A DNA stretch of 64,000 nt, taken from positions 868,001-932,000 of the forward strand of contig OY253683.1 in NCBI GenBank assembly GCA_958009085.1, in the 5' to 3' direction. Every line of letters begins with the position of its first letter. The first letter of the stretch is position 1. A model generated the notes under the pieces. It saw nothing but the letters and a program-made list of their open reading frames with translations. It searched no databases and was not told the DNA's origin. Origin of the DNA: Protoeuglena noctilucae. Its lineage: Eukaryota. Shown here piece after piece: positions 17,276 to 43,656 of this stretch. Both the position numbers and the translations under genes were made by a program.

Positions 17276-17281
17276 CGACCC

Positions 17282-17285
17282 TTTT
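17282..17285 (+). terminator. Pol III oligo-T terminator of the 5S gene
   Basis: TTTT 6 nt after the 5S 3' end. It is also present in the inverted copy (AAAA at 24858-24861). Confidence 0.7.
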
Positions 17286-17451
17286 GTCTCCTAATCGAGT
17301 CGCGGCGGTGCATTTACCCTACCCGGTCGCGGCCTTTCCCCGACGCGGGCTCCTTTTTGCGCCAGACGTTTTACTTTTGCATGTCTTGCCGGAAAATCGG
17401 GCCGGGCCGAGCGCGGATGCAAAATTTATACCCCTAGCCCTCTGCAGCCAT

Positions 17452-19167: not shown

Positions 19168-19367
19168 NNNNNNNNNNNNNNNNNNNNNNNNNNNNNNNNN
19201 NNNNNNNNNNNNNNNNNNNNNNNNNNNNNNNNNNNNNNNNNNNNNNNNNNNNNNNNNNNNNNNNNNNNNNNNNNNNNNNNNNNNNNNNNNNNNNNNNNNN
19301 NNNNNNNNNNNNNNNNNNNNNNNNNNNNNNNNNNNNNNNNNNNNNNNNNNNNNNNNNNNNNNNNNNN
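19168..19367. other. Assembly gap (N run)
   Basis: About 200 N bases. Confidence 1.
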
Positions 19368-22300: not shown

Positions 22301-24722
22301 GGGTGATGGCGTGCTGCGAATGATGAGGCCCCCTCAGGGGAGTAGCGGCTCGACGGCTGCCCATGTGGGCGCAGTGTAGGTGAAGGTGGACCTCGCCGGG
22401 TCCCTTGGGTGTAAGAGGGCGTCGTCAGGGTGCGTGCAGCGCGCGAGGGCCCGCCCGCCCCGGTACGCCGCCAGAGCGACAAGCTCCTCGGCCATAATGC
22501 GCGTCATCTGCGCGAACAGCTGTGCCGGGGACGCATCCGCCCCCGCGTCCTTCGTCAGCTGCTGCCGCCTGCGCCAGATGACCTGCACGGTCGCCCCCGC
22601 CACGACCGCCCACGTGAGCGGCCCCAACCGCGCGCCCTCCGGCACGCGCAGCAGGAAGAGGGCCGACGGGCGGAGGGGCGCCCCCTGCGCCCCCCCCGCC
22701 CACGCCACGATGCCCCTCGCCACGCGCCACACCTCCCGCGCGCGCGAGCACTCCCAGAACGCGTGGGCCGCGCTGTCCTTTCCCATGCACGCCTCCCCCT
22801 CCTCCGTCAGCAGCGGGCACTCGTCCCGCTCCGCCCAGTACATCCTGTCCTGCGTAGCCCACCCGTCCGCCAGCGTCAGCCACAGCCGCTCGTGCAGGGC
22901 GTCCGACAGCGGCAGCCCGTTCAGCGCCACCAGCGTGCGCCTCAAGCCCTCTCCCGTGACGCCGTGCCCCTCCCCCAGCGCCGCCGCCCAGCCCTCCGCC
23001 TTGCGCTCCAGCCGCTGCCGGATCGCCGCCCTGTCACACGTCGTCCTCGCCGCCTCCCGCACCGTCTAGGAGGCTAGGTCCAGCGCCGCCCTGGAGGCGA
23101 CGCCGGGGTCCAGTGCCCAGCCCGGCGCGGTGGCCGTCATGGGCCGGTAGAAGTCGTTGGCCTCCCCGCCGCCCGGGGAGGCAAGTCGCAGGCGCTCCAT
23201 GAAACCCTCCGTGAGCGCCAGCCCGTCCCACGGGTCCCATTGCCCCTCCACGTCTGGCCGGGCATACTCGTTGCCCGGCCCAAGGAGGCCCAGGTCCCGC
23301 ATAAAAGCCCCAACCACCCAGCCGAGGCCCCTCCGATCCACCCCCGGCAGCCGATCATAGCCCAGCGCGAACGCCCAGGAGACCCACGTGTCCCATCGCC
23401 GCGCCGGGTCCCGAATGCAGAGATAATGCCCCACAGTTCCGAATCCCCGTAACGCCATCGCCCTCCCCACCGGGTGCAGGAGGAGGGGCCGGCCGCCCCC
23501 CGCCGGCCGCCCAGCACCCCCCTCGTCGATCCCATCATCCGTATTGTCGTCGCCCGACGCGCCGTCGTGCACCCACGCCCCACCAGCCCTCCCATGGACG
23601 CCCGTCGCGAAGCTGTGGAGCGATGAGGCCGAATCGTCTTGGTCCTGTCCCATGTCGTTGTGGAGGGGGCCAGCTGCCCCCTCCATCGCCGGCGCCCCCA
23701 GGCCTGCCACCCCCGCGCCCGGAGCCCCCCCGCCGGCGGCACAGAGGACCCCCGGGGTGAGAAGCGACGCGCAGAGTAGATCCCCCTTTGTAGTCCCAGT
23801 GACGGGGGTGAAGAAGTCCGTAGAAGAGGCGAAACGAGAGCCGTCCGTGCCCGCCAGGCCCCCGCCGCCCACGCGCGCCCCCCGCCAGCCATGCCCGTCC
23901 ATGGCCACGTTGGACAGGCGGTCCGCCAGGGCGTTCTGCTCCCGTGGCACGTGCTCCCAAGTGATGTCGAGGCCCGCCGCGAGCCTCTGCGCCTCGGTCC
24001 ACAGCGGCACCATCGCCGGGTGCCGCAGCACCGAGCAGTCCCGCGGGTCCATGGCGCGGATGACGAGGAGGGAGTCCCCCCGGACGCGGAGCTTGGTGGC
24101 GCCGAGCTCGACTGCCGCGCGCAGCCCTCCCAAAAGCGCGGCGAACTCGGCCTGGTTGTTGGAGGCCCCGCGCACGGCGGGGCCCGCGAGCTCCAGCGTC
24201 TCCACCCCCTCGCCTGCCCCGGCCGCCAGCACCGCCCCCGCGCCAGCCGTGGACGTGTCGGAGCCGTTGCCCCGCGAGCCCCCGTCGAAAATGAGCGTCA
24301 GCAGGCCCTCCGCCGCCAGGCCGGTCCAGCGCTGCCGGGCGACCTCGTCCGTCGTGGGTGCCAGAGGTGGCCGCGCGTGCACGGGCCCGAGGGTCGCGCG
24401 CAGGGTCCCGAGGCCCTTGATGGCGTCGCAGAAGCTCTCGAGCGCCGGCAGCTTGCCCCGCAGGCGGCGGGACTCGATCAACTGCGCCACGTAGCAACCG
24501 TCCGTCTCGGGCAGTGAGAAGGGCAGCAGGCCCAGCCGGCCTGCCCCGAGCCCCTCCAGGCACGCCGTGAGGATGCCAGCGAGACCGTCCAACTGGCCGT
24601 GAGCGCCCACGCGCTTCGTGATGAGGGCGCGCGCCAGGTGCCGGAGCCGCCGCGCCGCCGTGTGCGCGTCCAGCGGGAGGGCGCCCAGCCCCCCCTCCTC
24701 CGGCGGGGGGGCATCCGCGCGT
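19368..24722 (-). mobile_element. 5'-truncated L1/Tx1-like non-LTR retrotransposon (ORF2 C-terminal part 24722-22334 plus long putative 3' region); 3' limit uncertain
   Basis: Post-RT PPEEGGLG motif. RNase H (FDGGSRGN, SNNQAEFAAL, GDSLLVI, HVPREQNALADRLSN). zf-RVT CCHC (CPL...C...DSAAHAFWEC...VW). RT core and endonuclease are absent. One in-frame TAG at 23066-23068. Confidence 0.85.
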
Positions 24723-24867
24723 GCATCCGCGCTCGGCCCGGCCCGATTTTCCGGCAAGACATGCAAAAGTAAAACGTCTGGCGCAAAAAGGAGCCCGCGT
24801 CGGGGAAAGGTCGCGATCGGGTAGGGTAAATGCACCGCCGCGACTCGATCAGGAGACAAAAGGGTCG

Positions 24868-24941
24868 GCAAGCGGACACTGGAGGTTCCAGAGTGGTCCC
24901 CCACCTCCGTACTGATCCAGCCCAACCGAGCTTGACTTCTG
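24868..24941 (-). pseudogene. 3' part (nt ~47-120) of the split 5S rRNA gene
   Basis: Reverse complement matches 17202-17275. Confidence 0.9.
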
Positions 24942-24947
24942 CACTGG

Positions 24948-25290
24948 CAGTCGTAGCCCCCCGGCCGGTTCTCGCACCTCCCCGCCCCGCACAGCCCCGG
25001 CGTCTCGGCGCACTCGTCCACGTCCACGCACCGCGCCCGGCCCCCGAACGTCCCCTGCCGGAACCCCTCCGCGCACTCGCACCGGTACGACCCCTCCTCG
25101 TTCACGCACGCCCCGTGCGGCCCGCACTCGTGGCTGCCGCTTGCACACTCGTCCACGTCCACACAGGTCGTCCCGTCAAACGCGTATCCCGCGTTGCACT
25201 TGCAAGTGAAGCTCCACCACTTGTTGACGCATTGCCCATGGGGCCCGCACAGTCCCCGGTCCAGCGCGCACTCGTCGACGTCCCAGACCC
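24948..25290 (-). pseudogene. Tandem calcium-binding EGF domain fragment (3 units), cut by the 5S junction
   Basis: DVDEC...C...C.N..GSY.C.C repeats. The third unit ends at GGYDCQC, then 5S sequence follows. Confidence 0.85.
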
Positions 25291-25479
25291 AGTCATGCAC
25301 AGCGCGGTAGCCCAGCACGGAAGAGATTGCCCACAGCACTGCGGGACAAGGAAACCTTGCAACCGTCATGTTTTGGATTGCGGCTGGCAGTGTTTTCCAA
25401 GCCTGCGCGTGTGGACCTGACCACATCGTTTGTGCATGTGTAGCGGAACGACACCATGGAGGTCGTCACAGCTACTCAC

Positions 25480-27902
25480 CCGCCAGAGAGACGAGCGCAG
25501 AGACGATGAGCGCCACTCGCTGTCCTGCTGAGGGCCACCGCTGCATCGGCGCTTGTAGTCCCTCGTCGCCGATCCTGTTTCCCTGCAGCAAAGGACACCA
25601 GGCCCCGTGTCGCTCGAGACGAGCAGCAGCTGCCCCCTGGCTCCCGATGCTATGCATAGTGCAGCAATCAATCGCAGGGACGGCAGCTTGTTTGCCAGCG
25701 GCTGCACGGGTGCGCCGATCATTCCCACGGACCTGTCCACCTCTTCCCGCGGGCTCGTCCGCCCTCGCCACCACCACTTCGGCCGGCTGCACGTCGGCCC
25801 ACCGCACGCCGGCCTCCCGCACCGCCGGCAGCCGCGACACTTGGTCCCACACGCCCCTCCGCAGGTGCGCCGGCACCCGCTCCGACTGAAACGCCACCAC
25901 GCGCCGACGATGCTCCTCGCGCTCTTGCGCCCGAAACTCTTCCTCCCTCCCAAACAAGTTTGGCCTACGCGGGTTGCGCGCGCACCCGGCCACGTGCGCG
26001 TGCGCGTCCTCCCCGCAGTCCTCCAGGCACCACCCGCACAGGTGCACCCCGCACCCCCCATCCGCCGGCGCGCACCACAGCGCCATGCACCTCTGGAAGT
26101 CCCCCACTGTCGCCGGCCGCTCACACCTCGGGCACCGCATCACATTCAGCTCCTCCTCCACCAGCTTGCGGTACGCGTCTACGGCCTTTTCAGAGTCCTT
26201 CGTCTCCCCCTCTCTCGCCAGGCGCCTCAGCTCCTCCAGCTCCTTCGCCCTCTCCTCTCTCTCGACATCCGCAGCGTGCCGTCGGGCGGCAGCGAAAAAC
26301 ATCGCTATCGCCCCTTTCTCCGGCAGCTTCTCCACCACCACCGTGCACTCGAACACCCCGTCGCACGCCTGGCCCGTGCAGTCCCGGCACTTGAGGTCCC
26401 CCGCCGCATTGAAGGCTGCCCGATTCTCCGCCAGCGTCGCCACCTTGCCCGCGAGGCAGTCGCCGCACACGCAGTGCGCTGCCCCGGTGCACTTGGCTAT
26501 CTTGCTCACGTCCTCGTCACACATGCACACGCAGCACTCCACGCGCCTGCGCGGGGGCGACGCCGGGCTGTCGGAGGCAGGCGACGTGACACAGCAACCC
26601 TTTGCACCAGCCATCCCATCGCAGATCCTCAACGCCAGAGGGTGACTGCTCGCAGTCACAGCCAGGGACACTAGCAACACCTGCATTTTACCTGGAGGCG
26701 CTGAGGGTGTCGCGAGACGCTCGTGCCGCCCTCAGCATGTCGGCCGCACTCGTCCGATCCTGGGCCTCAAATCGAAGCGCCCCCTGCACCGCCGACCGCA
26801 GCGGCTCCGGCACCGACTCAGGCACTTCCGGTAATCGCTTACGCACTATCACATCGGTCAAGATCTGGTTCCTGTTCTTGATGCCATGAGGCGGCTGTCC
26901 CGACGCTACGTGGCACAGCGTCGCAGCTAGCGCGTACGCGTCCGACGCTGCCGTGTGCGGACCCAGCTCCGTGTCCCACTGTTCGGGGGGCATGTAGTGC
27001 TCCGTGCCCATCCCATCCACGACACGAGTGCCCCGGGACGAGACCTGCGGGGGGACCACGACGGGGTTCACGGCCCATGGCTCGCCATGCACACCGATGA
27101 CGAGATGGCCAGACACCGACGCAGACTGAACCGCTAGCCACTCGCTGAGCTCCCTTGCAGCCCAGCTACGCCGCCGCCTCACCGACACCTTCATCGCGCC
27201 CTCGGCGACGGTCGCCAGCCCAAAGTCCGCCAGCAGCAAGGTGCCGCGATCGTCAATCAGCACGTTCTGGGGCTTGATGTCCCGGTGCACGATGTTGCAG
27301 TGATGCAGGTCCCGCAGACCCTCCAGCAGCTGTATCGCCACCTCCACCACTTCGTTCGGTGGCAGGGCCCCCTCCTCCGCGATGCGCTGCGCCAATGACC
27401 CCCTCTCGTACAGCGGCATGACGATGTGGAGCTTTTTGCCTATGTTGGAAATGCCCAACAGCCTGCAGGAGGAACGCGCACCACCGATCACGACACCGCA
27501 TGCACAGAGCCCGGCGTCCCGGCCGACAGTCGCAGGCAGAAGAGACAGATCCACTCACGGGCACACGCGGTTGCTGTGCATCGCCGCCTCCGCCATTCGC
27601 TGCATCTCCTTCATGCCGCGGTCGAGCACGCCCTCCCAGGTCCCCTTGGGCACACCACTACTGTCCACGTTGAATCGCTTGACAGCCACATCGCACTCGC
27701 GCGACAGCCACCGGCCACGGAACACCTCGCCCTGACCGCCCTCGCCCAATGACTCCCCGATCTGCAAGTCCTCTCCCGGAATCACGGGGACCTTCAAGGC
27801 AGCGCCTTCCGGGGTCACCGCCGGTGTGTCCGCCATCCCTGCAGGCGCGAGGAGCATGCCCATCCCTGCGGGCGCGAGGAGCATGCCCGGTTCTGATACC
27901 AT
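25480..27902 (-). CDS. TKL-like kinase - RING - IBR-like zinc finger protein (copy B) followed by a degenerate LRR-like exon; possibly a pseudogene
   Basis: [40 protein letters not shown]...C...HCVCGDC...C..C. IBR-like CPRC...CMALWC...CGVHLCGWC...[18 protein letters not shown]. Confidence 0.8.
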
Positions 27903-28797
27903 TCAACGTTTTGTTAGGGACTGGAGGCGCTGCTACCGCAGCACATGGTCCCGGTGCGGAGGCTGCACATTCTTGCGGGCGCAGCGGGCGCAGCGGGCGC
28001 CGTTGGGTCGCACGCGAGCCACGCCCGCGCCTCGGAGCTGGGTTTTATGCATCTAGCGGTTTGGTGCCAGGCGCCTGCCTTAACGCAGACAGCCTCGCTG
28101 CTGCACCTCACCCAGGTGCGGACCCCTCCGGTTGGCCCTCGACGCTCGCTTGGCCTTCGCGCGGCCCGCCATCGCGCCCTCGTCTGCGGACACGCCCGCC
28201 GCGCCCCGTCACAATTGCCGAGGCACGTGGTCCCAACACCGCAGCCGTGGCGTCCGAGGCCTCGCGTCCGCCCCGTCCTGCCCAGCACCTGCGTGTCTCA
28301 CTCACACGTCCTGCACCCGGAACCCTCGGCCCCCGAACGATGCGGCGCGGACGCAGACGAGGCCTCAAGCTGCGTGACGTGAGAAGGCCGTTTGAGCTCA
28401 CTCCGCTCGCGCGCTCGCAACCGATGGCTCAGGCTCGCACCCGATGACTCGCGAGGTGTGCGCTGCGCCGGGCCCGAGCCTCGCGAACGGTCTCCTGGCC
28501 GCGCGGGGAAGGCCCCGTGTCGGTTGCGCGCCAGACCTGCGCAGGAGTGCCGCCGTCTGCGCCGATTCGCGCGCCGGCCCGGCCACACGTCAGCAAGTGT
28601 CTCCGATCGCGTCCCTGCACCCAACGATTCCCCCGGGATGCGCGGAGGCAGCCTCGACCGACCCGGCCGCGTTCATCCTTCACTTTCTATCGTCCGATCT
28701 ATCAACATAACATGGGCCCTGTCTACCGGATGTCGTTGCTGCATGCCCATCCAGTGCACTGTCAATGCGCTATCGCTGTGCGCTTTTCGCGACTCGT

Positions 28798-29551
28798 TCA
28801 CAAAGACGCCAGCACGGTGGCCCACAAGGGGTTCAAGATGGCGAGGATCTCGTGCATCTCTTCCACCGACGCGGTGTTGTCACCTGCGGCGAGAGGCAAG
28901 ACGGAAGGCTTGTGACAGCTGCTGGATCGAGGCCAACATGGCTTGCAGGAGTCCCCATCCCGGGGCTCACCGTCGTCGTCAATGATGTCCATGACCGCCT
29001 GCGCGAGGCAGTGGCCGTAAATCTTGTCGCCGCGCTGCACGGCGGTCTTGGGCGTGTAGGCCTCCACGAACCAAGCCCCATCCGTGACGCAGACCTCGTC
29101 CGATTCGGACAGGTCGTCCATCAAGGACTCCGTGGTGCTGCGGGCAGTCAGATAGGGCCACGGATCGGCGCGTGGGCGCGAGGGCCGTTCGCATGGACCG
29201 CACGATGCGATTGGGGGCCGCCTCGGTCTCACCACACCGTCAGCCTTGCCACAGCGTCGCGGAGACCGCGGATCGCGTTCTTGTCGAAGCATGTCTCTGC
29301 GAGCGGGTGGAGATGGCGTTCGCAAAAAGCGATTAAAACGGTTTACGGTTTGGGTCAAAACCACGCGCGGTTTCGCTGCCGACGAAAACACGCAGTTCCA
29401 CGCAGAATGCATGCTCACCCTCCACATCCCGATCCCAGGGCGACTGGTTGGCCAGCTTTACAGCCGAAACCAGCGCGGAGTTGATGGCCATCGCGGGAAC
29501 GGCCAGCGCCGCGCCCAAGAGCGCAGCCAGGGCGATTTTCCGCGACAACAT
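28798..29551 (-). CDS. Small secreted protein with an EF-hand-like loop (paralog A), spliced
   Basis: Signal peptide MLSRKIALAALLGAALAVPAMA. Spliced loop DDDG|DNTASVEE. TGA at 28798-28800. Confidence 0.7.
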
Positions 29552-29896
29552 GGCTGCCTGTGTGTGCTGTGCGGTGGTGGCAGTAGAGGGATGTGAGTTG
29601 GAGGGCGCTACGGCTCGCAGATCAGAGACATGCAGATCAGAAACATCAGAAACAGCAGAAACAGACGCGAGTTCCCGTGCGCGAAAGCGCCTAAGGACGG
29701 ATTCTATATCCCCTGTTGGCGTCCGGAGGGCTCGGGCGTCCTGCAGGGCGGCCTGGATGCGCATGCATGACGCGCTTCTCGTTGCTCAGAGCCTTTCGCG
29801 CGCAAAGTCCGGGCCGACCACCAGGTCCGGATCATTTCAACGCTAGCAGCCCTAGCTACACTGCTATCCGCGACGATCACTGGCCACGCGCGAGCA

Positions 29897-31380
29897 TCAG
29901 CACTGGGCATCCACGAGATCCGAGAGCTCGCGATCGTTCTCCTTGACGTAGTCGATGATGCTGCCTGCGGACATCGAACCAAAGAGACCGTCCGCGGTCG
30001 CGCCCGTCGCGTTCGGCGGACGCCGCAGCGCCGTCGCGAAACGACCGTTGAGGCGGCGCCACCCTCGCCGCGCTCACCGATCTGGTGCACGTCATCGGGG
30101 CAGAAGGAGTTCTTGCCCAGCGACTGAGTGAGCAGGATGTCGATGGCGCTGCGGGAGGGGCGAAGTGAGGGTCCTCGGGTCACGCTGGCGGACATGCGGC
30201 CGTGCGCCCCAAGCCAAGCCAGGCAAGCCATGCAGTACAGCTCGCGCTCGCACCAGGTGATCTCCTTGACCTCGCGGGGGCTCAAGTCGAAGAGGTCGGG
30301 GGCGAGCAGGACCAAGTCGGCGACCTCGCCAGTCGACACGCAGCCATCGCCTGCGGGGCGGGACGGGGGCGGCCGGTTGGTATGCTGCCACGAGAAGCGT
30401 GTCCGGGGCACGACCGCATCGCATCGTATCGCTCACCGTCCGTGTCCATGATGGGCATGAGCGCGGTCGTCACGCACTCGCCCACGGCCTCCCCCACCGT
30501 GCGGATCTGGTCCCCCTCGTCTGCACGCGCTTACGACGAGGGATCAAGCTGCGACCGCCACGCGCTCTGCACGGATCCCGAGCGCAGCAGTGGCAGCAAT
30601 TGCACTCACCCATCATCATGAAGTCGAACATCTTGCCCTCCATGTCGTTCATGCAGAGCTCATCCGAGTCGCTCAGGTAGTCCATGACGGCCTCCGTCGA
30701 GCTGCGTGGGCGACCGCGAGCCTCTCCTTCAGCGGATACGCGCGCGGCAGCTGCTGGCGTGACCCCACGCCGCGCGCGCGGGGGCGAGAGGCAGTTGCAT
30801 CTCTCACCAGGTGATGAAGTCGAGCGCGGCGTCGCGGATGACACGGATGCCGTCCTTCGGCAGACAAACATCTGCAGAGACCAGAGAGGGGGGCGGCGCG
30901 CGGTCAGTCCCACGGCCGGCACGCAGAACGCACAGTTGGAGAACGGGTCAACGGCCGTCCCAGCCGTCGGCGTGGGGGGCGGAAACAGGCAAATCATCGC
31001 ATCCCGGAACTTGTGTCCGTTTTCTTCGACGAATTCCGATCGATTGGGTGCGGGGGGCATCGGGATGCGCGGCAAGGCCACCCGAGGCCATCCATCGGTG
31101 CCCCCTGCCGCTCGGGGGGCATCGCGTGCGCCCTTGGCCCGTGGGGATCACAGAGCTCGAAATCTGCGCCTCAGGCGCAGGATCGCCCTACCCCGACGCG
31201 CGGTACGCCGCGCCGGGGCCGCGATCGGCTTTCCCTCGCAGGGGCGCGCGCGGCCTCACCCGAGGGGTCCAGGTCGCCGTTCATGACCTTGAGAACCGTG
31301 GCGACGTGGTCGCGGACGGCCAGCGCGGGGAGGGCCAGAGCGGACGCCGCGAGGGCGCCGATGACAGCCTTGCGCATCAT
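29897..31380 (-). CDS. Small secreted protein with an EF-hand-like loop (paralog B), spliced
   Basis: Signal peptide MMRKAVIGALAASALALPALA. STEAVMDYLSDSDELC aligns with TTESLMDDLSESDEVC of paralog A. Loop DTDG|DGCVSTGE. Confidence 0.7.
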
Positions 31381-32044
31381 GGTATCGTCGTGGAGGTGAG
31401 CGAAGCGAGGTGGCGAGCGAGATGTAGCCGGCTCATGGCGCGTAACCTGCGAGTCTGGATTTTCCAAAGCCCTCAGGGGTTTCCCCTGGGTTAACTGCCC
31501 CTGGGTTGACTGCCCATGCTCAGTGCCCCCCGGATTCGCGTGCGCGCAATCTAGGAGAGTAGGAGCATTGTGGAGCCCGTCCAGAGACGCGGTTGGAGAT
31601 CTGCATGCATCTCCGGCCATGTCTCGTGGCTGGACAGGTGCGGTTCGCGACGATTTTATCGTGCGTGGGGGACTTACGTGCGCCAGAATCCGCGCGCTTG
31701 CACGCCCGTGGCGCGCCTGAGAAACAGCGTCCGTCGTGGGCCATGCCCCGCGCGACTCTCCGCGGACCCGCGGTGCCCACCTGCGCTTGCTGTGCTCCGG
31801 TACTCATTTGGAACCTGTACACGGATGCGCACGGCTTCCCGCCGTCCCATGCGGGCCTCCCGCAGCCTCTCATCAGCCAGGCCCTGGAAGCTGACTCAGG
31901 GGGCCCTGCTGAGGAGCTGCTGAGGGGCCGCAGACGACGCTCGATCCTCCCCTCCCTCCCGACGCCATGCCTGCAGGGCGGGGGCTGGCGGAGGACGCGG
32001 AATGTGTGCCGCTCCCCTTCGTGTCGGCCTGCTGCCCCCCCCAA

Positions 32045-35000
32045 ATGGCCGCTCACGCGTCGTGGACGGTGGACCGCTTCATCCGACTCCAGAAAATTGG
32101 CGAGGGCTTTGCGAGTCACGTCTTCCTGTCCATCGATACGCTCGGCCGAATGCGAGTTGCGCTGAAGGTGTGCCGACCTCGCGTTGGGAGTGCGTCTGGA
32201 CCGCGCCGCCGCGGCTCTGTGACGCGTCACCTGACCGGTTATGCGCTTCTCTTCTTCAGATATATCAGAAAAAGAACCTGACCCCGGCGCTCCTGGCCGC
32301 GGTGCGCCACGAAGTATCGGTCCATGGCCGGTGCGTCCACCCGCACGTCCTGCCCCTCCTGGCCGCATTCGAGGACGGCGGCTATCTGTGCATCGTCACG
32401 TGGTGAGCACCGCGCCCAGGCGGAGGTCCCAGGGACTTCGCAGCCCCCGCACGACTGCACGTCATGTGCGCTGGCCTGCACGGCTTGCAAGCACCCGGTC
32501 CCACACTGGCTGCCAGCGAGTTTGATACCGCGTTTTCCCCCTCTCACCCAGCATTGCGGAGAACTCGGATCTCCACCGCCGCCTCCCCGACATCCGCCGC
32601 GACGAGCCGACCGTGGTCAAGCACATCTTGGGGCCCCTGCTCTCGGCCCTCGCGGCCCTCCACATCGCGGGGTACATCCATCGGGACATCAAGCCTGAAA
32701 ACATCATGCTGCAGGCGAGGGACGGCTGCACACGCCAGGGCCGCCTGCATACTCGCTCCCATGCCCGCACCTCACACGCCCTCGCCGCCCTTACACCCTC
32801 TTCCGCTCATTGCCTGCACCCCCACCCCTGCTCCCGCGCTCATTCCCGGATTTCCGGCACTCCCTACTCCCAACCCTACCCTCTGACCCACCCCCGCTCC
32901 CACACCCACGCCCGCCCTCTTGGCCACCCTCACTGCCGCCCTCGCACCCTCAGCCCCACCCTCACACCGCCTCCCCCGCCCCCCCCACTCCCCCCAGGGC
33001 TCCCACGCCCTCCTCGCGGACTTCGGCTTCGCCATCTGCCACCGCCGCCGCCGCGCCGTCACCCGCCTGGGCACGCTGCAGTTCATGGCGCCCGAGGTGG
33101 TGCTCAACGACCCCGACGACAAGGCCACGCATCGCGCCGCGGTGCCCCGGGACGTGCGCCTGCCATATTCTGACGCGGTGGACGTGTGGGCCTTGGGGGT
33201 GGTGGCGTACGAGTGCCTGACGGGCACGCTGCCCTTCCCGGGGACCACTGACGATGAAGTGGTGGAGGCCGTGCTGAGGAGGAGGCCGCAGTACCCGGGG
33301 ACGCTCAGGTGAGGGGGAGAGGGAGGGTGGCAGTGACGGTGGAAGCGGTGAGAGTGAGGGTGGCAGAGCGAATGTGGCGGGGTGGGGGAGAGTGAGGGAA
33401 GCGAGTGCCATGATTGAGGTGATGCGTCTTTCATGCTGCGATCGTCGTCATCGTGTCATCGCTTCTCGTGCTTTCCAGTCGCGATGCGGTGGAGTTCCTG
33501 GAGCTGTGCCTGGCCTACGACCCCGGCAAGCGAGGATCGGCCGTCGACCTCTACTACCACCCCTTCGTGAGTGTCACGTTGATCACGCTCACGTTCACGC
33601 GCACATTCAGCCACGCACATTCAGCCACGCACATCCAGCCACGCACACCTCGCTGCGCGGCACGTGTGCCTGCTGCGCTTCTCACGAGCACGTGTGCCAC
33701 CTGTACCGTCCATGACATGTCGTACTTGCACAGCTGCACTGCTCACTCATGGCTCCCACCCCACGCACCCAACCCCGCCCCTCCCATCTTTCAGGTCCGA
33801 AAGCACATGCCGCGCGACCACTGGCACAGGCTGGAGCCGTCCCATTGGGCTTCCCCCGAGGCAGCCGCCGCGGCCATGGCGGCATTCCCCGCCCTCGTCC
33901 CATCCATGTACCAGGTGAGCGCGCGACGTGCCATGCGGGTCGCAGAATGCGAGGATCGATCGTCGGAGCCAGCTCCGCCCACGACGAGCCGACTGCGGTC
34001 GACGGAAGCAAGCACCGCAAGCGGCGTGCGCCTCAGAGACGCCCACACCCCTCCCTCGCCCCCCCTTCCACACCCATCCCCCTCCACCCCTCCTCCCCCA
34101 CCCCGCTCTCTCCTCCCCTCTCCCCCAGGCACCCCCGCCAGGCACCGCCGACGACGGTGCCGGGCCCGACTCCCCCACCCCCTCCGCCATCCGCCGCGCG
34201 TGCGGCTCCTTCGCTCGCCCCAACCACGAGCCGGACGCCGTCTCTCTCGGAGACCAGCGCGGCCGCTTCCGCGCCCAGCACTCCCAGGTCCAGTCCAGCG
34301 CGCCGTGCCCCTCGCCCTCCGTCGCGGGGTCGGCCGCCAACTCGCTCCCCATGGGGAACGCCCCGATGCCCTGGGGCCCGCTCACGCGCGACTGGAGCGA
34401 CCCCGCCAACGCCCCGCTCGGCCACGGCCACGGCCACGGCCACGGCCGCGCCGCGCCCAGCCGCATGCGCGCCGGCGACCCCAACGTGGCCCTCCGCGCC
34501 CGCGCCGTCCAGGGCTCGTTCGCCCAGGCAGCCGTCGCCACGGTGCACAAGTCCGCGCTCAGCTCCCCCGCCCTCGCGTCCGCCCGTGTCCGCTCCCCCC
34601 CCCGGCCCCCCCAAGTGGCGCCCCAGGCGGGGTCATCCACCACCGGCCCCTCCCCCTCCGGCCGCAACTCGGTCACGCTGGGCATCGGGCTGTGGCACAG
34701 CCTCTACCGGGTGCGGCCCGCGCCGGCGGGCGTGCTGCACGGCACCGCGTCGGGGGAGGGGGGCGCCAGTGAACGGACCACGCAGCCGGGTGACGCGGTG
34801 TGCGGGCGGGGCGGGTCCGTGGGTCGGCCTCTGCGCCTCGCGGACGCCGGGCCGTCGACGGTGGAGGGCGGGGTGGTTGAAACGGTCGAGTCTGGGGAGG
34901 TTCTGAGGGCGAAGTCGTTCAAGGCGGCGAGGGCTGCGGGGGGGAGCAGGGGCGCAAGGGGGAAGGTGAGGGCGGGATGGGGTGGGTGGGGAGTGGTGGA

Positions 35001-35547
35001 GTGGGTGGGGGGAGTGGAGGTGAGGGCGGGATGGGGTGGGTGGGGAGTGGTGGAGTGGGTGGGGGGAGTGGAGGTGAGGGCGGGATGGGGTGGGTGGGGA
35101 GTGGTGGAGTGGAGGTGAGGGCGGGATGGGGTGGGTGGGGAGTGGTGGAGTGGGGGGGGGGAGTGGAGGTGAGGGCGGGATGGGGTGGGTGGGGAGTGGT
35201 GGAGTGGGTGGGGGGAGGTGGAGGGTGTAGCGGTGGGGTTCAGCGGAATGCAGGTGCGCGGAAGGGCCACGTGGGCTTCTGCGCGATTCGCTCACCTCAC
35301 CTCACCTCACCTCACCTCACCTCGCCTCACGTCACCTCACGTCACCTCACGTGACCTCACCTCGCCTCACGTGACCTCACGTGACCTCACCTCACCTCAC
35401 CTCGCCTCACCTCGCCTCACCTCGCCTCGCCTCACCTCACGTGACCTCACCTCACCTCACCTCACGTGACCTCACCTCACCTCACCTCACCTCGCCTCGC
35501 CTCCCTCGCAGGGTTTTTTCCAACGCGTGTTCGGTTGTCTGGGATGA
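32045..35547 (+). CDS. Aurora-like Ser/Thr protein kinase, multi-exon
   Basis: IGEGFASHVF, VALK, VRHEVSVH...HPHVL, HRDIKPEN, ADFGFA, GTLQFMAPE, DVWALGV. Last exon GFFQRVFGCLG-TGA. Confidence 0.85.
34962..35222. repeat. G-rich tandem repeat (~5 units, each with AGGTGAGGGCGGGATGGGG) in the last kinase intron
   Basis: Read directly. Confidence 0.9.
35291..35500. repeat. (CTCAC)n pentamer satellite in the same intron
   Basis: Read directly; includes CTCGC and GTGAC variants. Confidence 0.95.
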
Positions 35548-35728
35548 CTCACTTTTGGCCCCATCCACGAGGCCTCTCGACTATGCTTGTAGCCCCTCCA
35601 GCATGCATGCGCTGCGTTCGGCACGCCCACGCTCGCCCCCGACATTGGGCGACCACCCTGAGCTGGCGACTCTGAGACAAGATGCCGGCCATTTTGTTTT
35701 TTTTTTGCTTTTTTTGTTTTTTTTGTTT

Positions 35729-35918
35729 GCCTCTTATCCCTCACCTGGCATCTTATCCCTCACCTGGCATCTTATCCCTCACCTGGCCTCTTATCCCTGA
35801 CCTGGCCTCTTATCCCTGACCTGGCCTCTTATCCCTGACCTGGCCTCTTATCCCTCGCCTGGCCTCTTATCCCTCACCTGGCCTCTGATCCCTCCCCTGG
35901 CCTCTTATCCGTCACCTG
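35729..35918. repeat. 19-bp tandem repeat GCCTCTTATCCCTCACCTG (~10 units)
   Basis: Read directly. Confidence 0.9.
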
Positions 35919-37049
35919 CGGCGACGGCGCAGCACCGCGTCCTGCCGCTGCAGCCCCGCAGTCCGCATCGCGGCCTAGCCCCAGGAGCCAGTGAGACTGG
36001 CTCTCGCTCTTTCGCGCAAGGCACTTCCCCGCCGCACCTCACCTTAGGACGATGGTTTGATCTCTCGCCCGACGCGGGGCGCCCGTTCTTGACCTCGCTT
36101 CAGGAACCTGCGGCTATGTGCACCCGCCGGCCTCGTGCGATCGCCGCGACCGCTCCTTGTGTTCTGCGCCTTTCCCTGTATCACCCGGGGGGCCTGGAGA
36201 GTCACGCGGGCTGCGCCTGCCGTGGCGTCCCTCGCTGGCCATCGCAGCGTCCCACGTGGCGCGTGATAGAATCCAGCCTGCGCCCCTTTTCGCCACAGTA
36301 CAGACGACGGGTGTCTTGTCGTTTCTTTGGTAGCGCACGGGTCGACCTTTCCACGTGTGCCGCGCCAGTCTGCGCCAGTCTGGCGTCGCTGGGGCGGGGC
36401 ACTTGAGTGTCAGCGAGGGGGCGAGAGCTGCGTCAGTTATCCATTCGCCCAGTTGAAGAGCACAGTTGTACTCGCGGGCGGGGGCGCGCACCCGCGTAGA
36501 GGGTGTGGAGGATGAGCATGCTGACAGACAACGACAAAGCCCCCTGAAAGGGTTAGTGTTTGCTTGTGCATACACTTCGGGGTTCTTGCTTGTGGGAGCA
36601 CATTAAGCAGCAATCACCCGCCTCCAACTCAGCATCTCCTGAAGTCCCTCTCTCACTTCCTGCACCCTGCCTTGCCGTGTCGCTTTCACAAAGCATCGAT
36701 GTCGTCTGGCAGCGCAGAGCTGCAGAGGAGCGCAGTGACGGTGTGTCTCTGTGTCTAGCACAGCGTTGAGTGGAAATGCAGGGCGCATGCATGAACAGTC
36801 CGGCATGGTGAGGGGAGCGGGGTTGCAGGTATGACGGGAGTTGCGGGTTCAAAACCTGAAACTAGGAAAAGGGGTAACACACAGGATAGGGTTGGCTCCA
36901 GACTAGCTTGCACAGCTGCGCCCTCCACAGCAGCAATGCTCAGCATTGGTATGTCGCTCCTTTCCCGCACCCCGACACCTGGCAGCCGCTGTGCTGCAGA
37001 CGGGACTCGTCGCCAAGCCTCAACAGGCCATACCCGCCACACTTGCTGA

Positions 37050-38020
37050 CAACCACGCCCCGCACCTCCGCCTGACCACCATCTAGGCACCACACCCCGT
37101 GACCCTCCTTGGACCCCGTGATGCGCCCCCCCTGCACCACGATCTTGGACCCCTGGCCCATGCTCCACACGCCACAGCGCTTGCAGTCGGCGATCTGCAC
37201 GTCCCGCACCTCCGCCTGCCCGCCCTGATCGCACCACACCCCGTGACCCTCCTTGGACCCCGTGATGCGCCCCCCCTGCACCACGGCCTTGGACCCGGCA
37301 TCGAAACACGCCACGCCACAGTCCTTGCAGTCGGCGATCTGCACGTCCCGCACCTCCGCCTGACCACCCTTTTTGCATACAACCCCGTTGCCCTCCTCGG
37401 ACCCCGTGATGCGCCCCCCCTGCACCACGGCCTTGGACCCCTGGCCGTGGATAAACACGCCACAGCTCTTGCAGTCGGCGATCTCCACGCCCCGCACCTC
37501 CGCCTGACCACCCTCTTGGCACGACACCCCGTTGCCCTCCTTGGACCCCGTGATGCGCCCCCCCTGCACCACGGCCTTGGACCCGGCATCGAAACACGCC
37601 ACGCCACAGCCCTTGCAGTCGGCGATCTCCACGCCCCCCACCTCCGCCTGACCACCCTTTTGGCACAACACCCCGTTACCCTCCTTGGACCCCGTGATGC
37701 GTCCCCCCTGCACCACGGCCTTGGACCCGGCATCGAAACACGCCACGCCACAGCTCTTGCAGTCGGCGATCTCCACGTCCCGCACCTCCGCCTCACCACC
37801 CTCTGCGCACTGCACCCCGTGCTTGTCCTCGGACCCCGTGATGCGCCCCCCCTGCACCACGGGCTTGGACCCCTGGCCGTGGATAAACACGCCACAGCTC
37901 TTGCAGTCGGCGATCTCCACGCCCCGCACCTCCGCCTGACCACCCTCTTGGCACGACACCCCGTTACCCTCCTTGGACCCCGTGATGCGCCCCCCCTGCA
38001 CCACGACCTTGGACCCCTGG
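37050..38020 (-). repeat. Seven 144-bp coding repeats (48-aa beta-helix units)
   Basis: CGTGATGCG recurs at 37117, 37261, 37405, 37549, 37693, 37837 and 37981 (period 144). Confidence 0.95.
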
Positions 38021-38334
38021 TTGTAGCAGATCACGCCCGTCTTGGGAGCCCCCGACACCTGCGTGTCCGTCAGCACCACATGACCGCCCCCCTCGCACTG
38101 CACCCCCGTTCCCACCACCCTCACGCCCTCCACCCGCAGCGGCCCGCCCCCGGCGGCCCTCAGAGCGTACCCCTCCCCCAACGCGGCGCTGGATGCCCGC
38201 AGCGTCCCGTTCCGCACCGTCAAAGACTGTCCACTCCGCACTGTCACCTCTGACGACAGCCTCCACTCCCTTCCCTCCAGGTCGATGACACCCCCTGAAG
38301 GGACCACCCCCCGCTCGAGGAAAGCTTCTCTCTC

Positions 38335-38551
38335 CGCCACCCGCCTCTCCTCCGCCAACCGCCTCTCCTCCGCCACCCGCCTCTCCTCAGCCACCCGCCT
38401 CTCCTCAGCCACCCGCCTTTCCTCCGCCACCCGCCTCTCCTCAGCCACCCGCCTCTCCTCAGCCACCCGCCTCTCCTCCGCCAACCGCCTCTCCTCAGCC
38501 ACCCGCCTCTCCTCAGCCACCCGCCTCTCCTCAGCCACCCTCCTCTCCTCC
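38335..38551 (-). repeat. 18-bp coding tandem repeat, (EERRVA/EERRLA)x12
   Basis: Read from the ORF and the DNA. Confidence 0.95.
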
Positions 38552-41269
38552 ACCGCCCCGCCCCTCTCCTCCTGGCCCACCCCCACCCCACCGGGCGCAT
38601 CCCCCGCCCACTCCCCCAGCACCGGGTCCGCCCTCAGAGCCTCCCACACTGCCCGCCGCTCCCCCGCCGCCACCTCCCGCACCAGATACTCCGCCACGCG
38701 CTCCTGCGCCCACTGCTTCTTGCCCTGCTCGAACAGCGCCATCGACGCGAACACGTTCCCCGGCCGCAGGTTCCTCTCGCATCCCCGCACGTGGTCGTGC
38801 ACCTCAGCGTGCTCGAACACCCCGAAGCACCACCCGCAGATCTCCGCCCCGCACCCCTGCCGGTCGCTGCACTTGAGCGCCAGGCAGTCGTCCTCGCTCT
38901 CCCGCTCCACAAACGCCCGTCCGCACCGCCCGCACTTGGGCGTCACCGCCTCCGCCACCGCCAGCTTGTGCCGCGCCACGGCCTCCTCCCGGCTCCCCAC
39001 CCGCGCACGCGCCAACTCCCCCCGCAGCCGCTCCACCTCCGCCGCCAGCTCCTCCGCCTCTCGCGCCCGCGCCCCCGCCGCCACGTTCGACATGAACTGC
39101 CTGGCGTCCGCGTCCTTCAGCACCGCCACGATGCCTGCGCTCGCGAACGTCCCCCCGCACGCGTGCCCCAGCTCAGAGCACGGCACGTTCCCCAGGTGCC
39201 CCGTGAACCACCCCGCGGGGTCGTCCGCGTGCGCCGCCAGCATGCGTGCCAGGTCCTCGTCGCACAGGTAGTGCACGACGCCGCCCCCGCTGCACCCCAC
39301 CGCCCGCCTTCGGGGTACCAGCCCCATACATGTCACTCACTCCACCTCGCCCCGCGTCGGGTCTGCCGCTTCCAGCGCACGCCTGCGGCACAGGTCGGAA
39401 ACTCTTTCTAGCACACGATGTGACGAAGCGGCCACAGAAAGCCCGTAGCATGCCCCGCCCGCACTCGCCTGCACTCCCTCGCCGCCGCCAGCATGTCCGC
39501 CACGCTCGCACGCTGCGCCGGGTCCCTCTCCAGCGCCCGCAGCGCCGCCGACCGCAGCGGCTCCGGCACCGACTCGGGCATCTCCGGCTTGGCCCCATTC
39601 ACGCACACCGCGAACACCACCTGCGCCATGCCCTGCCCCGCGAATGGCTCCTGCCCCGTCGCGAGGTGCGACAGCGTGGCTGCCGCCGAGTACGCGTCCG
39701 ACAGCGGCGTGATCTCCTTGGCCGCGTCGTACTGCTCGGGACTCATGAACCCGAACGTGCCCCACGCTTCCTGCCGCATGGTCACCCTTGAGTGCCGCTG
39801 CAAGCGTCAGAGTCATGAGACGTGCCTTCACCGGCATGACGTAGCAGCGCGCTAACCCAAGCAGCGCGCCCCATGGCCAACGACGCGCGCCCTCACCGCC
39901 ATCGACGCCCGCTCCTGCGATATCTTGGCCAGGCCGAAGTCCCCCAGCAGCACCGTGCCGCGCCGGTCCAGCAGCAGGTTGTGCGGCTTCACGTCGCAGT
40001 GCACCAGCCCCGCGCCGTGCAGGCTCGCCAGCCCCTCCAGCATCTGCTCCGCCATGTCCACCAGCTCTCCCACCGGCAGCCCCGTCCCCAGCTCCCGCAC
40101 CCGCTGCGCCAGCGACCCGCGCTCCGCCAAGGGCATCACCAGGTGCAGCGCGCCGTCGATGGTCGACGTCCCCAGCACCCTGCGGACGCCGACGATCGCC
40201 CACATGCTCGCGACGAGCCCGCGACGAGCCCACGACGAGCCCGCGACGAGCCCGCGACGAGCCCGCGACTCGGGGCACTCCCCGCTCTGCGGCGTGCATG
40301 CACCGCCATTCACCGCCATCCCGCAAGCGACGCACCGGCACACGTGGGCGTTGTTCACCGTCGCCAGGGCCAGCCGCTGCACCTCCTTCGCCGCCCGCTC
40401 GTTCGCCCCCGCCGCCCCCGCCCCATCCGTCAGCCGCTTGACGGCCACGTCCTGCGACGTCCCCTGCCTCCGCCACGTGCCCCGGCGCACCTCGCCCTGG
40501 CTGCCCTCCCCGGCCCCCAGCACCTCTCCCAGCAGTATCTCACTCGCCGGAATATCCGGGATCCTCGCACCGAGGTTCATCGCGACGCCTCGCGCCGTTC
40601 GCGGCCAAGATGGCGGGGCACGCCGGCGTCGCGCTGCGGGGGCGCAGCACGGCGGAGTGCAAGCGAGCCGGCCGAAATCGGCCCCGCTTGCATGTTCACA
40701 GGCAACGCAGCCCCCCGGAGGTCTCTGAGCGCGCGTCTTATGCTTTCTGCCCATCGTGCTCTCCCGCAACGTCGCCCCCGCCACTTCCGGAGCCCGCTCG
40801 CTCGTTCCTGCCGATCCATGCCGTCAATACAGCTTATTGCGACTGATAAGCCTCCCCGATCATCCTCCGCAGCTCACCTTTCTCTCGAGGGCAGCACGGG
40901 CGGTGGCAAGACGCTTTGCGGTTGTTGGGCACCACTGCCGGCACTTTGGAGTAATACAGCCCCGCAGGTGACGCTCAGGGACTCAGTAATCCCCTGCGCC
41001 CGTGCCCCAGCACGCCAGACGCATGCCCGAGGTGCCAGACATGTCTGTGCACGTCACGTGCAGCACGTGCAGCCAGAGGCGACGTCGCCCGTCGCAGGCC
41101 CATCCTCCGCGACAGATCAACCTCTTTCCATCGCGTGCGCTGCTTCCTCGAGAAGGACACCACAGCAACCATGAGTCCGCGTGGCGCCCGCGCTGCCGGG
41201 CCGCAAGGTGGGACCACCGCGGTCAGGCTGCCTTGCCACGCCGATGCTGTCCTTGCTCCCCAGTCTCCT

Positions 41270-41694
41270 CAGGCGTGCCTCGACCTTGCCCTGTGCGCCA
41301 CGCGATCTCGGCGCGGCCCCGCTGCGTCGCGCGCGGTCCATGGCACCCCGCGCACCTCCGCGATCTCGGTGCCCTGGGCCCCCCGATGGCATCGCGTGTT
41401 TGCCACGGCCCATCGCTGGCGAGCGGAGGCCCCGTCGTTTGCATTCCACGCCCCGACGGTCCGCTTTCGTGGCAGCCACGGGGTGCCACCCTGACCGTCC
41501 CGGGACCCGCCCAACGGGCTGGCTGTTCGCGCCCGTCTGGAAGGCCCCTGGCCGGCCAGCTGCTGCTGCCGTGCCTGGCGTGGGTGTCGTTCGCCGGGGT
41601 CCTCAACGCCTGGATCTGGCGCCAGAACCCCAGCAACGGGGAGGGCAAGGAGCGCGGCGTGGTGGGCAGGGAGAAGAAGGGTGAGGGGTGCTGA
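41270..41694 (+). pseudogene. TspO/MBR-like remnant with internal deletion
   Basis: GWLFAPVWK is joined out of frame directly to AGQLLLPCLAWVSFAGVLNAWIW; the central helices are missing. Confidence 0.7.
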
Positions 41695-42365
41695 GCCATG
41701 ATGATGTGGGATGCGCTGCGTGGGTGCGGGATGTGACACTTGCGTCACACGCATGACCAAAATGGCACTCTACGCTGCTGGGACCGCTGTCGCGGCGCCC
41801 GAGGTCAGGAGCGGCGGCAGGGACACCGGCAAGGCGAAGCAGAAGGGTGGCGCGTCCTGCCGATGCACCGTCATGTGACACGACCGCCTGACCTCGTGAC
41901 CCGTGATCCGTGCATCGTGTCATGGGCGGTGTGATGCCGAGTGCAGCACAGCCGAGTGCGAGTGCGAGATCATCCATGCAATGCACCACCCATGTGCCAC
42001 CAGGCCTCGGCCCCTCACAGGCAACTGAAGCTCCGTATCACCGGAGGCCGATCAGCTGCGTTAAGAACGTCGCTTGCCGCGCGTTGTTGCATGCTGGTGT
42101 GGTGGCAGCTGTGGTTGTCGTGCGCATGAAGGTGGCTCTCTCGGGTCGATGCGCCTTGCACGCCACTGCTGGTGGGCATGGCTTAGCCCAAGCCGGCAGA
42201 GGCCAATGCTGATCGGTGTGCCTTCACTGGGAGAGGGCATGGCGAGCACCTGCTGTTGTCAAGTCGCGTTTGAAAGGAGGCTCGCAAGCGAGGCAAAACA
42301 TGAAACGCTGCCGAGCTGGTTGGGGGCACAGACGGCAAAGCCGGGGCGTGTGCTGTATACATAGA

Positions 42366-43651
42366 TCATGTGTACCAGAGGATGATCAGGAAGAGGATGA
42401 TGAGAAGCGAGAGTAGTACAATCAGTGTCAAACAATCAGTGTCAAACGCTTTAATCCGGCACCCCGACACCTGGCAGCCGCTGTGCTGCAGACTGGAACC
42501 AAGCGACCTATACAGGCCATGCCCGCCACACTTGCTGACAACGACGCCCCGCACCTCCGCCTGCCCGGCCCATGAGCACGCCACCCCAGCATCGCCTGAA
42601 CCTGTGATGCGCCCCCCCTGCACCATGGCCTTGGAGCCCCGGTCACCGCTTAACACGCCACAGCTCTTGCAGTCGGCGATCTCCACGCCCCCAACCTCCG
42701 CCTGACCACCCTTGACATACGTCACCCCATGGCTCTCGCCCGTGTTTGCTATGCGTCCCGGACGATCGTCGCGTGACTCCCCGTTCCTGTTGACCGCACA
42801 CCTGACTTGGGTGCGTCCGCCACGTGTGCGTCCGTCAGCACCACATGACCGCCCCCCTCGCACTGCACCCCCGTTCCCACCACCCTCACGCCCTCCACCC
42901 GCAGCGGCCCGCCCCCGGCGGCCCTCAGAGCGTACCCCTCCCCCAACGCGGCGCTGGATGCCCGCAGCGTCCCGTTCCGCACCGTCAAAGACTGTCCACT
43001 CCGCACTGTCACCTCCGCCGACAGCCTCCATTCCCTTCCCTCCAGGTCGATGACACCCCCTGAAGGGACCACCCCCCGCTCGAGGAAAGCTTTTCTCTTT
43101 GCCCTGCTCTGCAGCTTCTACTCCCCAACTCCCAATCTTGATAGGGAGTTTATTATCATTTTCCCTAATAATACTAATACTAATAGTAACTAATACTGAT
43201 AATACTCCCTAATAATACTCCCTATCGTACTCCCTATCATACTGGAAACAAAAATGACTACGATGGACGCATTCACCCACTCGTACCGCCACAGAAGGCT
43301 CCATATCCAAATGGAAACCATAGCGACTATGACGGACGTAATCACCCACTTGTACCGCAACAGTGGGTCCTGGCGTCCGCGTCCTTCAGCACCGCCACGA
43401 TGCCTGCGCTCGCGAACGTCCCCCCGCACGCGTGCCCCAGCTCAGAGCACGGCACGTTCCCCAGGTGCCCCGTGAACCACCCCGCGGGGTCGTCCGCGTG
43501 CGCCGCCAGCATGCGTGCCAGGTCCTCGTCGCACAGGTAGTGCACGACGCCGCCCCCGCTGCACCCCACCGCCCGCCTTCGGGGCACCAGCCCCATGCAT
43601 GTCACGCACTCCACCTCGCCCCGCGTCGGGTCCGCGGCTTCCAGCGCATGC
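42366..43651 (-). pseudogene. Rearranged paralog (copy C): RING fragment + AT-rich hydrophobic segment + short beta-helix
   Basis: 43370-43651 is nearly identical to 39100-39382, and 42834-43095 to 38069-38330. Frameshifts and TAG stops are present. Confidence 0.85.
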
Positions 43652-43656
43652 CTGCA

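Follow-up and report, generated by a model that had tools for sequence, protein, structure and literature searches.

A kinase joined to a probable IBR-less ubiquitin ligase module of RBR type at a Protoeuglena noctilucae locus

Background

Ubiquitin ligases of the RING-between-RING (RBR) kind are defined by three zinc domains, and a natural family devoid of the IBR would reveal which parts of their mechanism are dispensable. Parkin, an autoinhibited RBR ligase, is activated through phosphorylation by the kinase PINK1, the two being separate proteins. In plant KEG the RING stands before a kinase in a protein that also carries repeats, and in the F-box adaptor FBXO11 a beta-helix of the CASH/PbH1 type is the substrate-binding part of the ligase. 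This work concerns a stretch of 64,000 nucleotides of Protoeuglena noctilucae (contig OY253683.1 of assembly GCA_958009085.1, forward-strand positions 868,001 to 932,000), hereafter the window, and within it two diverged genes, A and B, and a broken copy, C. Genes A and B probably belong to a protist-wide family where a serine/threonine kinase is fused directly upstream of a ligase module that descends from RBR ligases like RNF216 and parkin and lacks the IBR.

Leishmania TKUL (HECT12) combines a kinase and a HECT domain in one polypeptide and is reported to require autophosphorylation for ligase activity. PUB33 carries a kinase and a U-box ligase domain in one protein. A survey of plant and green-algal RBR ligases distinguishes four subfamilies, none linked to a kinase, and the word kinase occurs 0 times in its text. 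Human ZNFX1, an antiviral superfamily 1 (SF1) helicase, ends in a bipartite ubiquitin ligase (E3) made of a Miz and an RZ finger, which is reported to act by an RBR-like two-step route. No description of an IBR-less RBR ligase or of a kinase-RBR fusion was found in the literature searched, subscription journals and supplements lying outside that search.

Results and discussion

Gene layout and kinase domains

Both genes lie on the minus strand, gene A at 36940..40580 and gene B from 27902 down to at least 25480. A first-pass annotation made from the DNA letters had described them as two diverged genes of common exon layout, and this description holds: intron positions and phases are the same and the exon-4 products align. 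The exons inferred from splice sites in the DNA are 40580-40336, 40179-39897, 39797-39469 and 39382-36940 in gene A and 27902-27559, 27462-27183, 27044-26692 and 26546-25733 in gene B, the last with an in-frame alternative acceptor at 26567. As read from the DNA, three introns fall at identical codon positions and phases in both genes: intron 1 (phase 2) follows a VC(R/P) motif, intron 2 (phase 0) interrupts the activation segment and intron 3 (phase 2) lies beyond the kinase. The products of exon 4 share 31% identity over 256 residues (E 2e-18) and the kinase parts 42% over 263 residues. Copies of these parts were identified by tblastn at only three places in the window. The product of gene A comprises, in order, a kinase, a degenerate RING1, a long helix, a Rcat-like finger, a spacer of ERRVAE units and a beta-helix.

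The kinase of gene B is encoded by exons 1-3 (26692..27902, minus strand), delimited by splice sites and matched by Pfam Pkinase at 1.8e-30 and 0.0042. In both genes the Pkinase matches are spread over the three exons and succeed one another as in the profile (for B, 2-58, then 62-167 and the C-lobe; for A, 65-153, then 154-259). The motifs are VAVK, HRD, DFG and PPE in gene B and VAVK, HCD, DFG and SPE in gene A, HCD being a non-RD form in place of HRD, and by this motif set both domains are complete eukaryotic protein kinase catalytic domains. The nearest solved kinases to that of B are MST3/STK24, MAP3K8, the kinase domain of Leishmania TKUL and RIPK1 (E 1e-14 to 1e-12); the TKUL domain (9gmp) ranks within the top 12 of the solved matches, with E 3e-14. 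The B kinase is nearest to kinases of the STE20, MAP3K and RIPK types and is not shown to be PINK1-like.

The ligase module

The module is best preserved in exon 4 of gene B (25733..26546, minus strand), which is read from DNA splice sites and is covered in part by RNA contigs without mismatch. It comprises RING1 (~26545-26330), a helix of 58 residues (~26317-26144), a Rcat-like finger (~26143-25976) and a helical C-terminal domain (~25975-25790). Ligand columns were counted in an alignment of 46 module sequences. RING1 has the eight C3HC4 positions, all 8 of which are kept in gene B. The conserved positions of the second finger are C138, C141, C153, C158, C165, C170, C173, C177, H182, H184 and C188, kept in 42-46 of the 46 sequences; C153, kept in 44, aligns with the catalytic Cys of RBR ligases. 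No conserved Cys or His was identified in these sequences between module positions 56 and 138 (~80 residues), hence no IBR zinc finger, and the Cys-free helix of 58 residues stands where the IBR would be.

A search of solved chains with a single sequence returned only RING2 of HHARI at E 2.9, and a profile was needed. The profile built from the 46 sequences matched parkin at E 9.1e-6 (RING1 part i-E 3.6e-4, Rcat part i-E 0.11), the Rcat of CUL9 at 5.1e-4, a second parkin construct at 7.2e-4 and RING2 of HHARI at 6e-3. In all three multi-domain RBR chains with printed alignments the second finger was better matched by Rcat/RING2 than by the IBR (IBR against Rcat stretch: 8.9 vs 15.4 bits, 4.3 vs 10.7 and -9.1 vs 23.0). 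Among the precomputed Pfam 38.1 records of 39 long relatives, RING-HC_RBR_RNF216 is recorded for RING1 of the closest relative (P0182) and Rcat_RNF216 for the second finger of another (P0192); UBA_RNF216 was not seen there. At the level of sequence the second finger is assigned to Rcat. The order first proposed for both genes, kinase, RING, long helix and second Cys/His finger, is retained, but not the label IBR-like for the finger: the profile matches Rcat and C153 falls on the catalytic Cys. Nor does the earlier view that a Rcat finger is not seen survive, as the second finger is the Rcat-like one and the missing part is the IBR. With the module taken as a divergent RBR without IBR, the two possibilities of the earlier reader are reversed.

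The predicted structure points the same way. The AlphaFold model of the B module (pLDDT 92.8, pTM 0.67) shows a RING-like domain and a single helix at residues 77-134, after which come a small finger rich in beta structure and a terminal helical part. With the whole module as query, the best 17 chains retrieved by Foldseek were all RBR ligases, RNF216 being the first (E 7.6e-4). The structural comparison by VIA gave RNF216 at Z 9.2 over 189 residues, with a large root-mean-square deviation (rmsd) that results from a differing arrangement of the domains, and RING1 of parkin, HOIL-1, HOIP, ARIH2 and RNF144 at Z 6-7.5 (rmsd 2.5-3.1 A, ~90 residues). The finger and C-terminal helices folded alone reached pLDDT 92.1. 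Prediction of a homodimer through the long helix scored 0.22 and 0.18 (mark 0.32), which is evidence for neither side.

The module is therefore like the RBR ligases RNF216/TRIAD3 and parkin in the fold of RING1, the Rcat-like finger and the kept position of the catalytic Cys. RNF216, the best match of the whole module, also shares with it a helix after Rcat, although this match is weak (Z 3.3). Unlike those ligases, the modules of A and B have no IBR, their fingers are joined by the Cys-free helix and a kinase stands upstream. As predicted from these comparisons, the protein is a kinase fused to an IBR-less RBR-like ligase.

Relatives in other protists

Relatives were collected with a two-sequence profile by HMMER against 1.84 billion cluster representatives. 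The module, of ~240 residues, was matched as one unit, and relatives number 1345 cluster representatives at E <= 1e-3, of which 499 reach <= 1e-10 and 6 reach <= 1e-30. Named sources include a dinoflagellate, oomycetes, Chromera, an ichthyosporean and a pelagophyte. A word-based search with the gene A module against longer proteins found nothing, and one with the end of B exon 4, aimed at an open reading frame (ORF) derived from spliced RNA, gave nothing at E <= 1e-20 (110-352 residues).

The family-wide Pfam scan covered 88 relatives at E <= 1e-5. Forty-eight of them have no family at all, so that the module is invisible to that library. The most frequent partner is a kinase (26 relatives), followed by Beta_helix, ankyrin and WD40 (3 each, one of the WD40 relatives also with a kinase) and helicases (2); MORN, ALK_LTK_GRD, UBA_7 and IBR were identified once each, and Ubiquitin and LRR_6 each on one kinase-bearing relative. 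In all 26 kinase-bearing relatives the kinase is directly N-terminal of the module in the same ORF. The 39 long relatives contain 22 kinases, 8 SF1 helicases of the ZNFX1/UPF1 type and 2 DEAD helicases. In some members the kinase is preceded by a transmembrane segment, or leucine-rich repeats (LRRs) of the RNI type stand at the N terminus, and relative P0024 has a ubiquitin domain ahead of the kinase, as parkin has its Ubl. The idea of a modular family, with a kinase and ligase core joined to varied repeat or sensor domains, is borne out by these 88 relatives.

Two relatives differ in the arrangement of the module itself. P0008 contains the helix and Rcat-like finger twice in tandem, and P0012 a canonical RING-IBR-Rcat followed by an extra copy of helix plus finger. 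These arrangements suggest that the second half of the module is able to move independently.

The constant order of kinase and ligase would tie phosphorylation directly to thioester ligases and offer a compact system for the study of kinase control of an E3. Since the module is missed by the local Pfam copy, many protist proteins taken for kinases or helicases may be unrecognised ubiquitin ligases.

Mode of action

Several observations weigh against placing genes A and B in a family of kinase-linked RBR ligases. The local Pfam copy, which lacks the RNF216 models of Pfam 38.1 (these were available as precomputed records of relatives only), identified no RING or IBR in the window proteins and nothing between kinase and beta-helix, and the two RNF216 models are recorded for 1 of 39 relatives each. 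The finger alone gave no significant Foldseek match, the best being the IBR-RING2 of parkin at E 0.64; in a VIA comparison against 48,161 chains the top two were the Rcat and helix of RNF216, weak at Z 3.3 and 3.1. In gene A a stop codon interrupts the module, two ligands are substituted and the long beta-helix frame that stays open may be a relic. The RNA contigs cover parts of A and B at low depth; in neither gene are the kinase exons and exon 4 bridged by a contig, and one contig (39371-39574) passes unspliced through intron 3 of gene A; here and below, statements on RNA contigs refer to the contigs and joints among those listed. Finally, the ligase activity of A and B is a prediction from sequence, models and analogy.

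Part of this evidence would suit an ordinary one-step RING ligase, with RING1 as the catalyst and the second finger in a structural or binding role like that of the B-box in RING/B-box/coiled-coil proteins. Such a protein would have no IBR, its isolated finger could lack a significant structural match and the silence of the local Pfam copy would be in place; in addition, two zinc sites would not use up all the Cys/His columns of the second finger, and C153 could be a ligand. This alternative appears unlikely: the profile matches fall on Rcat domains with the catalytic Cys aligned, all top structural neighbours of the whole module are RBR ligases and one relative has a record of Rcat_RNF216.

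The RNA contigs bear on a second alternative, in which kinase and ligase would be encoded by separate neighbouring genes or transcripts and for which the missing bridge between exons 3 and 4, the unspliced contig over intron 3 of gene A and the ORF-based database entries holding the ligase part alone could be cited. Those entries come from gene calling without splicing, however, and the introns between kinase and ligase exon measure only 86 nt in A and 145 nt in B, on one strand and with matching phases in both paralogues. As the 26 kinase-bearing relatives all have both parts in one ORF and in the same order, separate genes are regarded as very unlikely.

If the products of A and B are kinase-linked RBR-type ligases, their action can be outlined from the mechanism of known RBR ligases. 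RING1 would dock the ubiquitin-charged E2, and ubiquitin would pass by transthiolation to the Rcat-like Cys as a thioester and then to the target. The variable C-terminal part would pick the target, this being in gene A the beta-helix, presumably held off by the ERRVAE helix. From the autophosphorylation precedent of TKUL and from PINK1 and parkin we infer, by analogy, that the attached kinase may switch the ligase on or off by phosphorylation.

The comparison with TKUL extends to the presence of a kinase and a predicted thioester-type E3 in one polypeptide. It ends at the ligase parts, between which no homology was seen, since that of A and B is RBR-like and that of TKUL a HECT. Unlike KEG and PUB33, which are one-step RING or U-box ligases, the module has a Rcat-like finger. 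Gene A resembles FBXO11 in joining a right-handed beta-helix to ligase machinery, although FBXO11 is not a catalytic RBR.

State of the three copies

Among the three copies only B looks intact, whereas A looks decaying or recently inactivated and C a rearranged fragment. Such a set, an intact gene beside an interrupted one and a fragment inside 18 kb, fits the birth-and-death evolution that had been suggested for the family.

Gene A contains an in-frame TGA (39337..39339, minus strand) at the first zinc ligand of RING1, where copy C has TGC and gene B a Cys; ligand 6 is an Asp. The 798-codon frame beyond the TGA is still open, so the stop may have arisen recently or else represent an allele or an error. 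For the DNA-like run X4, which may be the source sample, the bin of the TGA lists no differing letter; X1, X2 and X3 are the runs of RNA contigs. A selenocysteine reading of the TGA was considered and is improbable, as no SECIS was found in the window (Rfam, gathering thresholds) and a zinc-ligand site is unlikely for it. The Rcat-like finger of gene A (38776..38940, minus strand) has the Cys at the catalytic position, while the conserved Cys 177 is replaced by Phe. Intron 3 (39383..39468, minus strand) begins with a GC donor (AG|GC, where B has AG|GT) that the in-frame reading requires. GC donors can be functional, and this one is consequently not counted as a defect.

The C-terminal part of gene A starts with the ERRVAE units, an 18-bp tandem repeat (38327..38550, minus strand, 12.4 copies, 93% match) between the ligase module and a right-handed beta-helix (36943..38333, minus strand). 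The beta-helix, already proposed in the first-pass annotation, is confirmed by Pfam Beta_helix (9.3e-55) and NosD (2.4e-15). It includes, according to TRF, tandem repeats of a 144-bp unit of 48 residues (6.7 copies, 86% match) and a higher-order unit of 432 bp (2.2 copies, 91% match). No relative of this beta-helix was found among solved sequences at E <= 1e-3.

RNA contigs differ from gene A in clusters, with 9 differences within 41 nt at 38975-39015 (X1) and ~10 per 200 nt at 39954-40421 (X2 and X3). These clusters are absent from the DNA-like X4. The RNA samples concerned probably contain transcripts of a close paralogue of gene A or of the allele of another strain. Intron 1 of gene A contains an 11-bp tandem repeat (40209-40269, 5.5 copies).

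Gene B is matched without mismatch by two RNA contigs, 25571-26290 (X1, unspliced) and 25732-26335 (X2). The X2 contig, of 1016 nt, tracks the gene from 26335 to 25732 and departs from the genome at a CAG|GT donor (25733|25732); according to the depth table, its remaining 412 nt fall within 25000-25633. A probable intron 4 (25583..25732, minus strand) is therefore delimited by this donor and by a candidate acceptor at 25583. Gene B had been thought to end in an LRR-like exon. As the X2 contig leaves at the 25732 donor, part of that ORF is intron (the larger part, if the candidate acceptor is right), and the RNA-supported splice leaves a single NRIGDEG-type motif in the supposed exon (25480..25582, minus strand), followed by a hydrophobic stretch and a G|GTGAGT donor. 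Position 25480 is the last base before this consensus donor and not the end of the gene. The whole C-terminal ORF of B (419 residues) has no Pfam family at E <= 0.1, hence no LRR and no beta-helix, and the LRR-like exon is abandoned. The homology of B to beta-helix-bearing relatives ends at the 25732 donor, just past the first residues of the beta-helix cap, and for this reason a beta-helix seems to have been replaced in B by a new 3' end.

Two continuations of gene B are considered, one or the other. The next feature on the minus strand is an exon with three calcium-binding EGF domains (24942..25338, Pfam EGF_CA 4.5e-24). Either the gene uses the acceptor at 25583/25582, continues to 25480 and enters the EGF exon by a strong acceptor at 25339/25338 in matching phase, in which case a hydrophobic, transmembrane helix of 23 residues would lie across the junction, followed by the three EGF_CA domains, with kinase and ligase inside the cell; or translation of B ends at 25472, in which case the EGF exon would be part of another gene, one for a secreted protein with its own ATG near 25372. 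The EGF_CA domains (4.5e-24) are also contained in an open frame of 799 codons on the minus strand (23066-25465) which, beyond a 5S-derived stretch, encodes an RNase H / RVT_3-like domain (2.3e-12). The two parts of this frame are probably unrelated pieces read through in GC-rich DNA.

Copy C (42455..43655, minus strand) is a patchwork relic with broken frames and no kinase. Its first piece holds the final bases of intron 3 together with RING1 (43655-43369; 97.9% identity to A over 287 bp); a filler (43368-43099) comes next, and two pieces of the beta-helix follow, one from its start (43098-42544) and one from its end (42712-42455). The filler, ~270 bp of AT-rich DNA with short tandem repeats, replaces the helix, the second finger and the ERRVAE repeats. 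A broken third copy had been announced correctly, but its beta-helix is not a different one as was then stated: it is that of A in shortened form, with 84.7% identity over 570 bp and 80.8% over 266 bp. Pfam Beta_helix matches it at 3.5e-5 with 23.9 bits, under the cut-off of 25.9.

In view of this state it may be asked whether all three copies, B included, are nonfunctional relics in a rearranged segment. The TGA of gene A, its Asp at ligand 6 of RING1 and its Phe at 177, the patchwork of C, the end of B homology to beta-helix relatives at a new donor and the position of the segment between two halves of a 5S unit would all be expected of such relics. Gene B nevertheless keeps the kinase motifs, the 8 ligands of RING1 and every position conserved in the second finger, and both RNA contigs on it match without mismatch, one of them spliced at a canonical donor. 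A locus made only of relics is for these reasons held to be quite improbable.

Possible role in sensing

The ZNFX1-type helicases of protists carry the module at the place where ZNFX1 has its Miz and RZ fingers; in P0065 it occupies residues 1338-1553 of 1577. Unlike these fingers, the folds of the module are RING1 and Rcat-like, and no chain of RNF213 or ZNFX1 was among the PDB matches of the profile. By analogy, the helicase parallel makes a defence role for the module conceivable.

Genes A and B had been described as possible intracellular immune-like sensors under birth-and-death evolution; in such sensors the C-terminal repeats would recognise a sign of a pathogen, and kinase and ligase would relay it. 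Partners typical of sensors (LRR_6, WD40, ankyrin and beta-helix) were identified in the family, and the module ends ZNFX1-type SF1 helicases in 8 of the 39 long relatives, at the place where the antiviral human ZNFX1 has another two-step E3. The state of the three local copies (intact, interrupted by a stop, relic) and the recent expansion of the gene A repeats (144-bp units at 86%, 432-bp unit at 91%) would also suit it. However, B may be a membrane protein with EGF domains outside the cell, and no NACHT, NB-ARC or death-fold domain was identified in the 88 relatives, nor NACHT or NB-ARC in the ORFs of the window. Absence of NACHT and NB-ARC lowers the claim of being an NLR and not that of acting in defence. 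On balance the immune-sensor role is a tentative possibility.

A wider reading, more speculative and doubtful at present, would see in the module and its kinase an ancient protist supradomain for phosphorylation-gated thioester ubiquitylation, plugged onto interchangeable sensors as a general output of danger or environment sensing. The sensors would be beta-helix, WD40, LRR, ankyrin, receptor ectodomains and ZNFX1-type helicases, animals using Miz/RZ on ZNFX1 instead.

Surroundings of the locus

The window has a G+C content of ~65% and its introns are short and of GT-AG type. Parts of the region are present in three marine metatranscriptome runs, and the closest unnamed clusters of the protein atlas are for the most part from haptophytes. 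An intact 5S rRNA gene (17157-17275, plus strand, 85.5 bits) lies within a unit of 579 bp (16843-17421), and a second copy of this unit is split at 5S position 46-48. The 5' part of the split unit (44017-43657, minus strand, 97.8% over 362 bp) adjoins copy C, and the 3' part (24941-24722, minus strand, 98.6% over 220 bp, with a sub-threshold 5S match of 32.9 bits) adjoins the EGF exon. From these flanking halves, the whole 18.7-kb segment that holds A, B and C sits inside one 5S gene copy. Both junctions between segment and 5S read CAGTGCAG, and the two ends of the segment, if joined, would be in frame.

Two other transcribed regions are located between genes B and A. The plus strand contains an unrelated protein-kinase gene (31634-34125) with six GT-AG introns backed by RNA contigs of X2. 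The minus strand shows strong expression at 28667-31260, from one or more genes that contain at least eight short GT-AG introns, with a contig depth of up to 1549 in X2 and a loose end resembling poly(A) at 28667; no Pfam family was identified on four ORFs tried within this region. An assembly gap of 200 N occupies 19168-19367 of the window. Finally, an array of CTCAC pentamers (35291-35507, 43.6 copies) is accompanied by other G-rich minisatellites at 34.9-35.9 kb.

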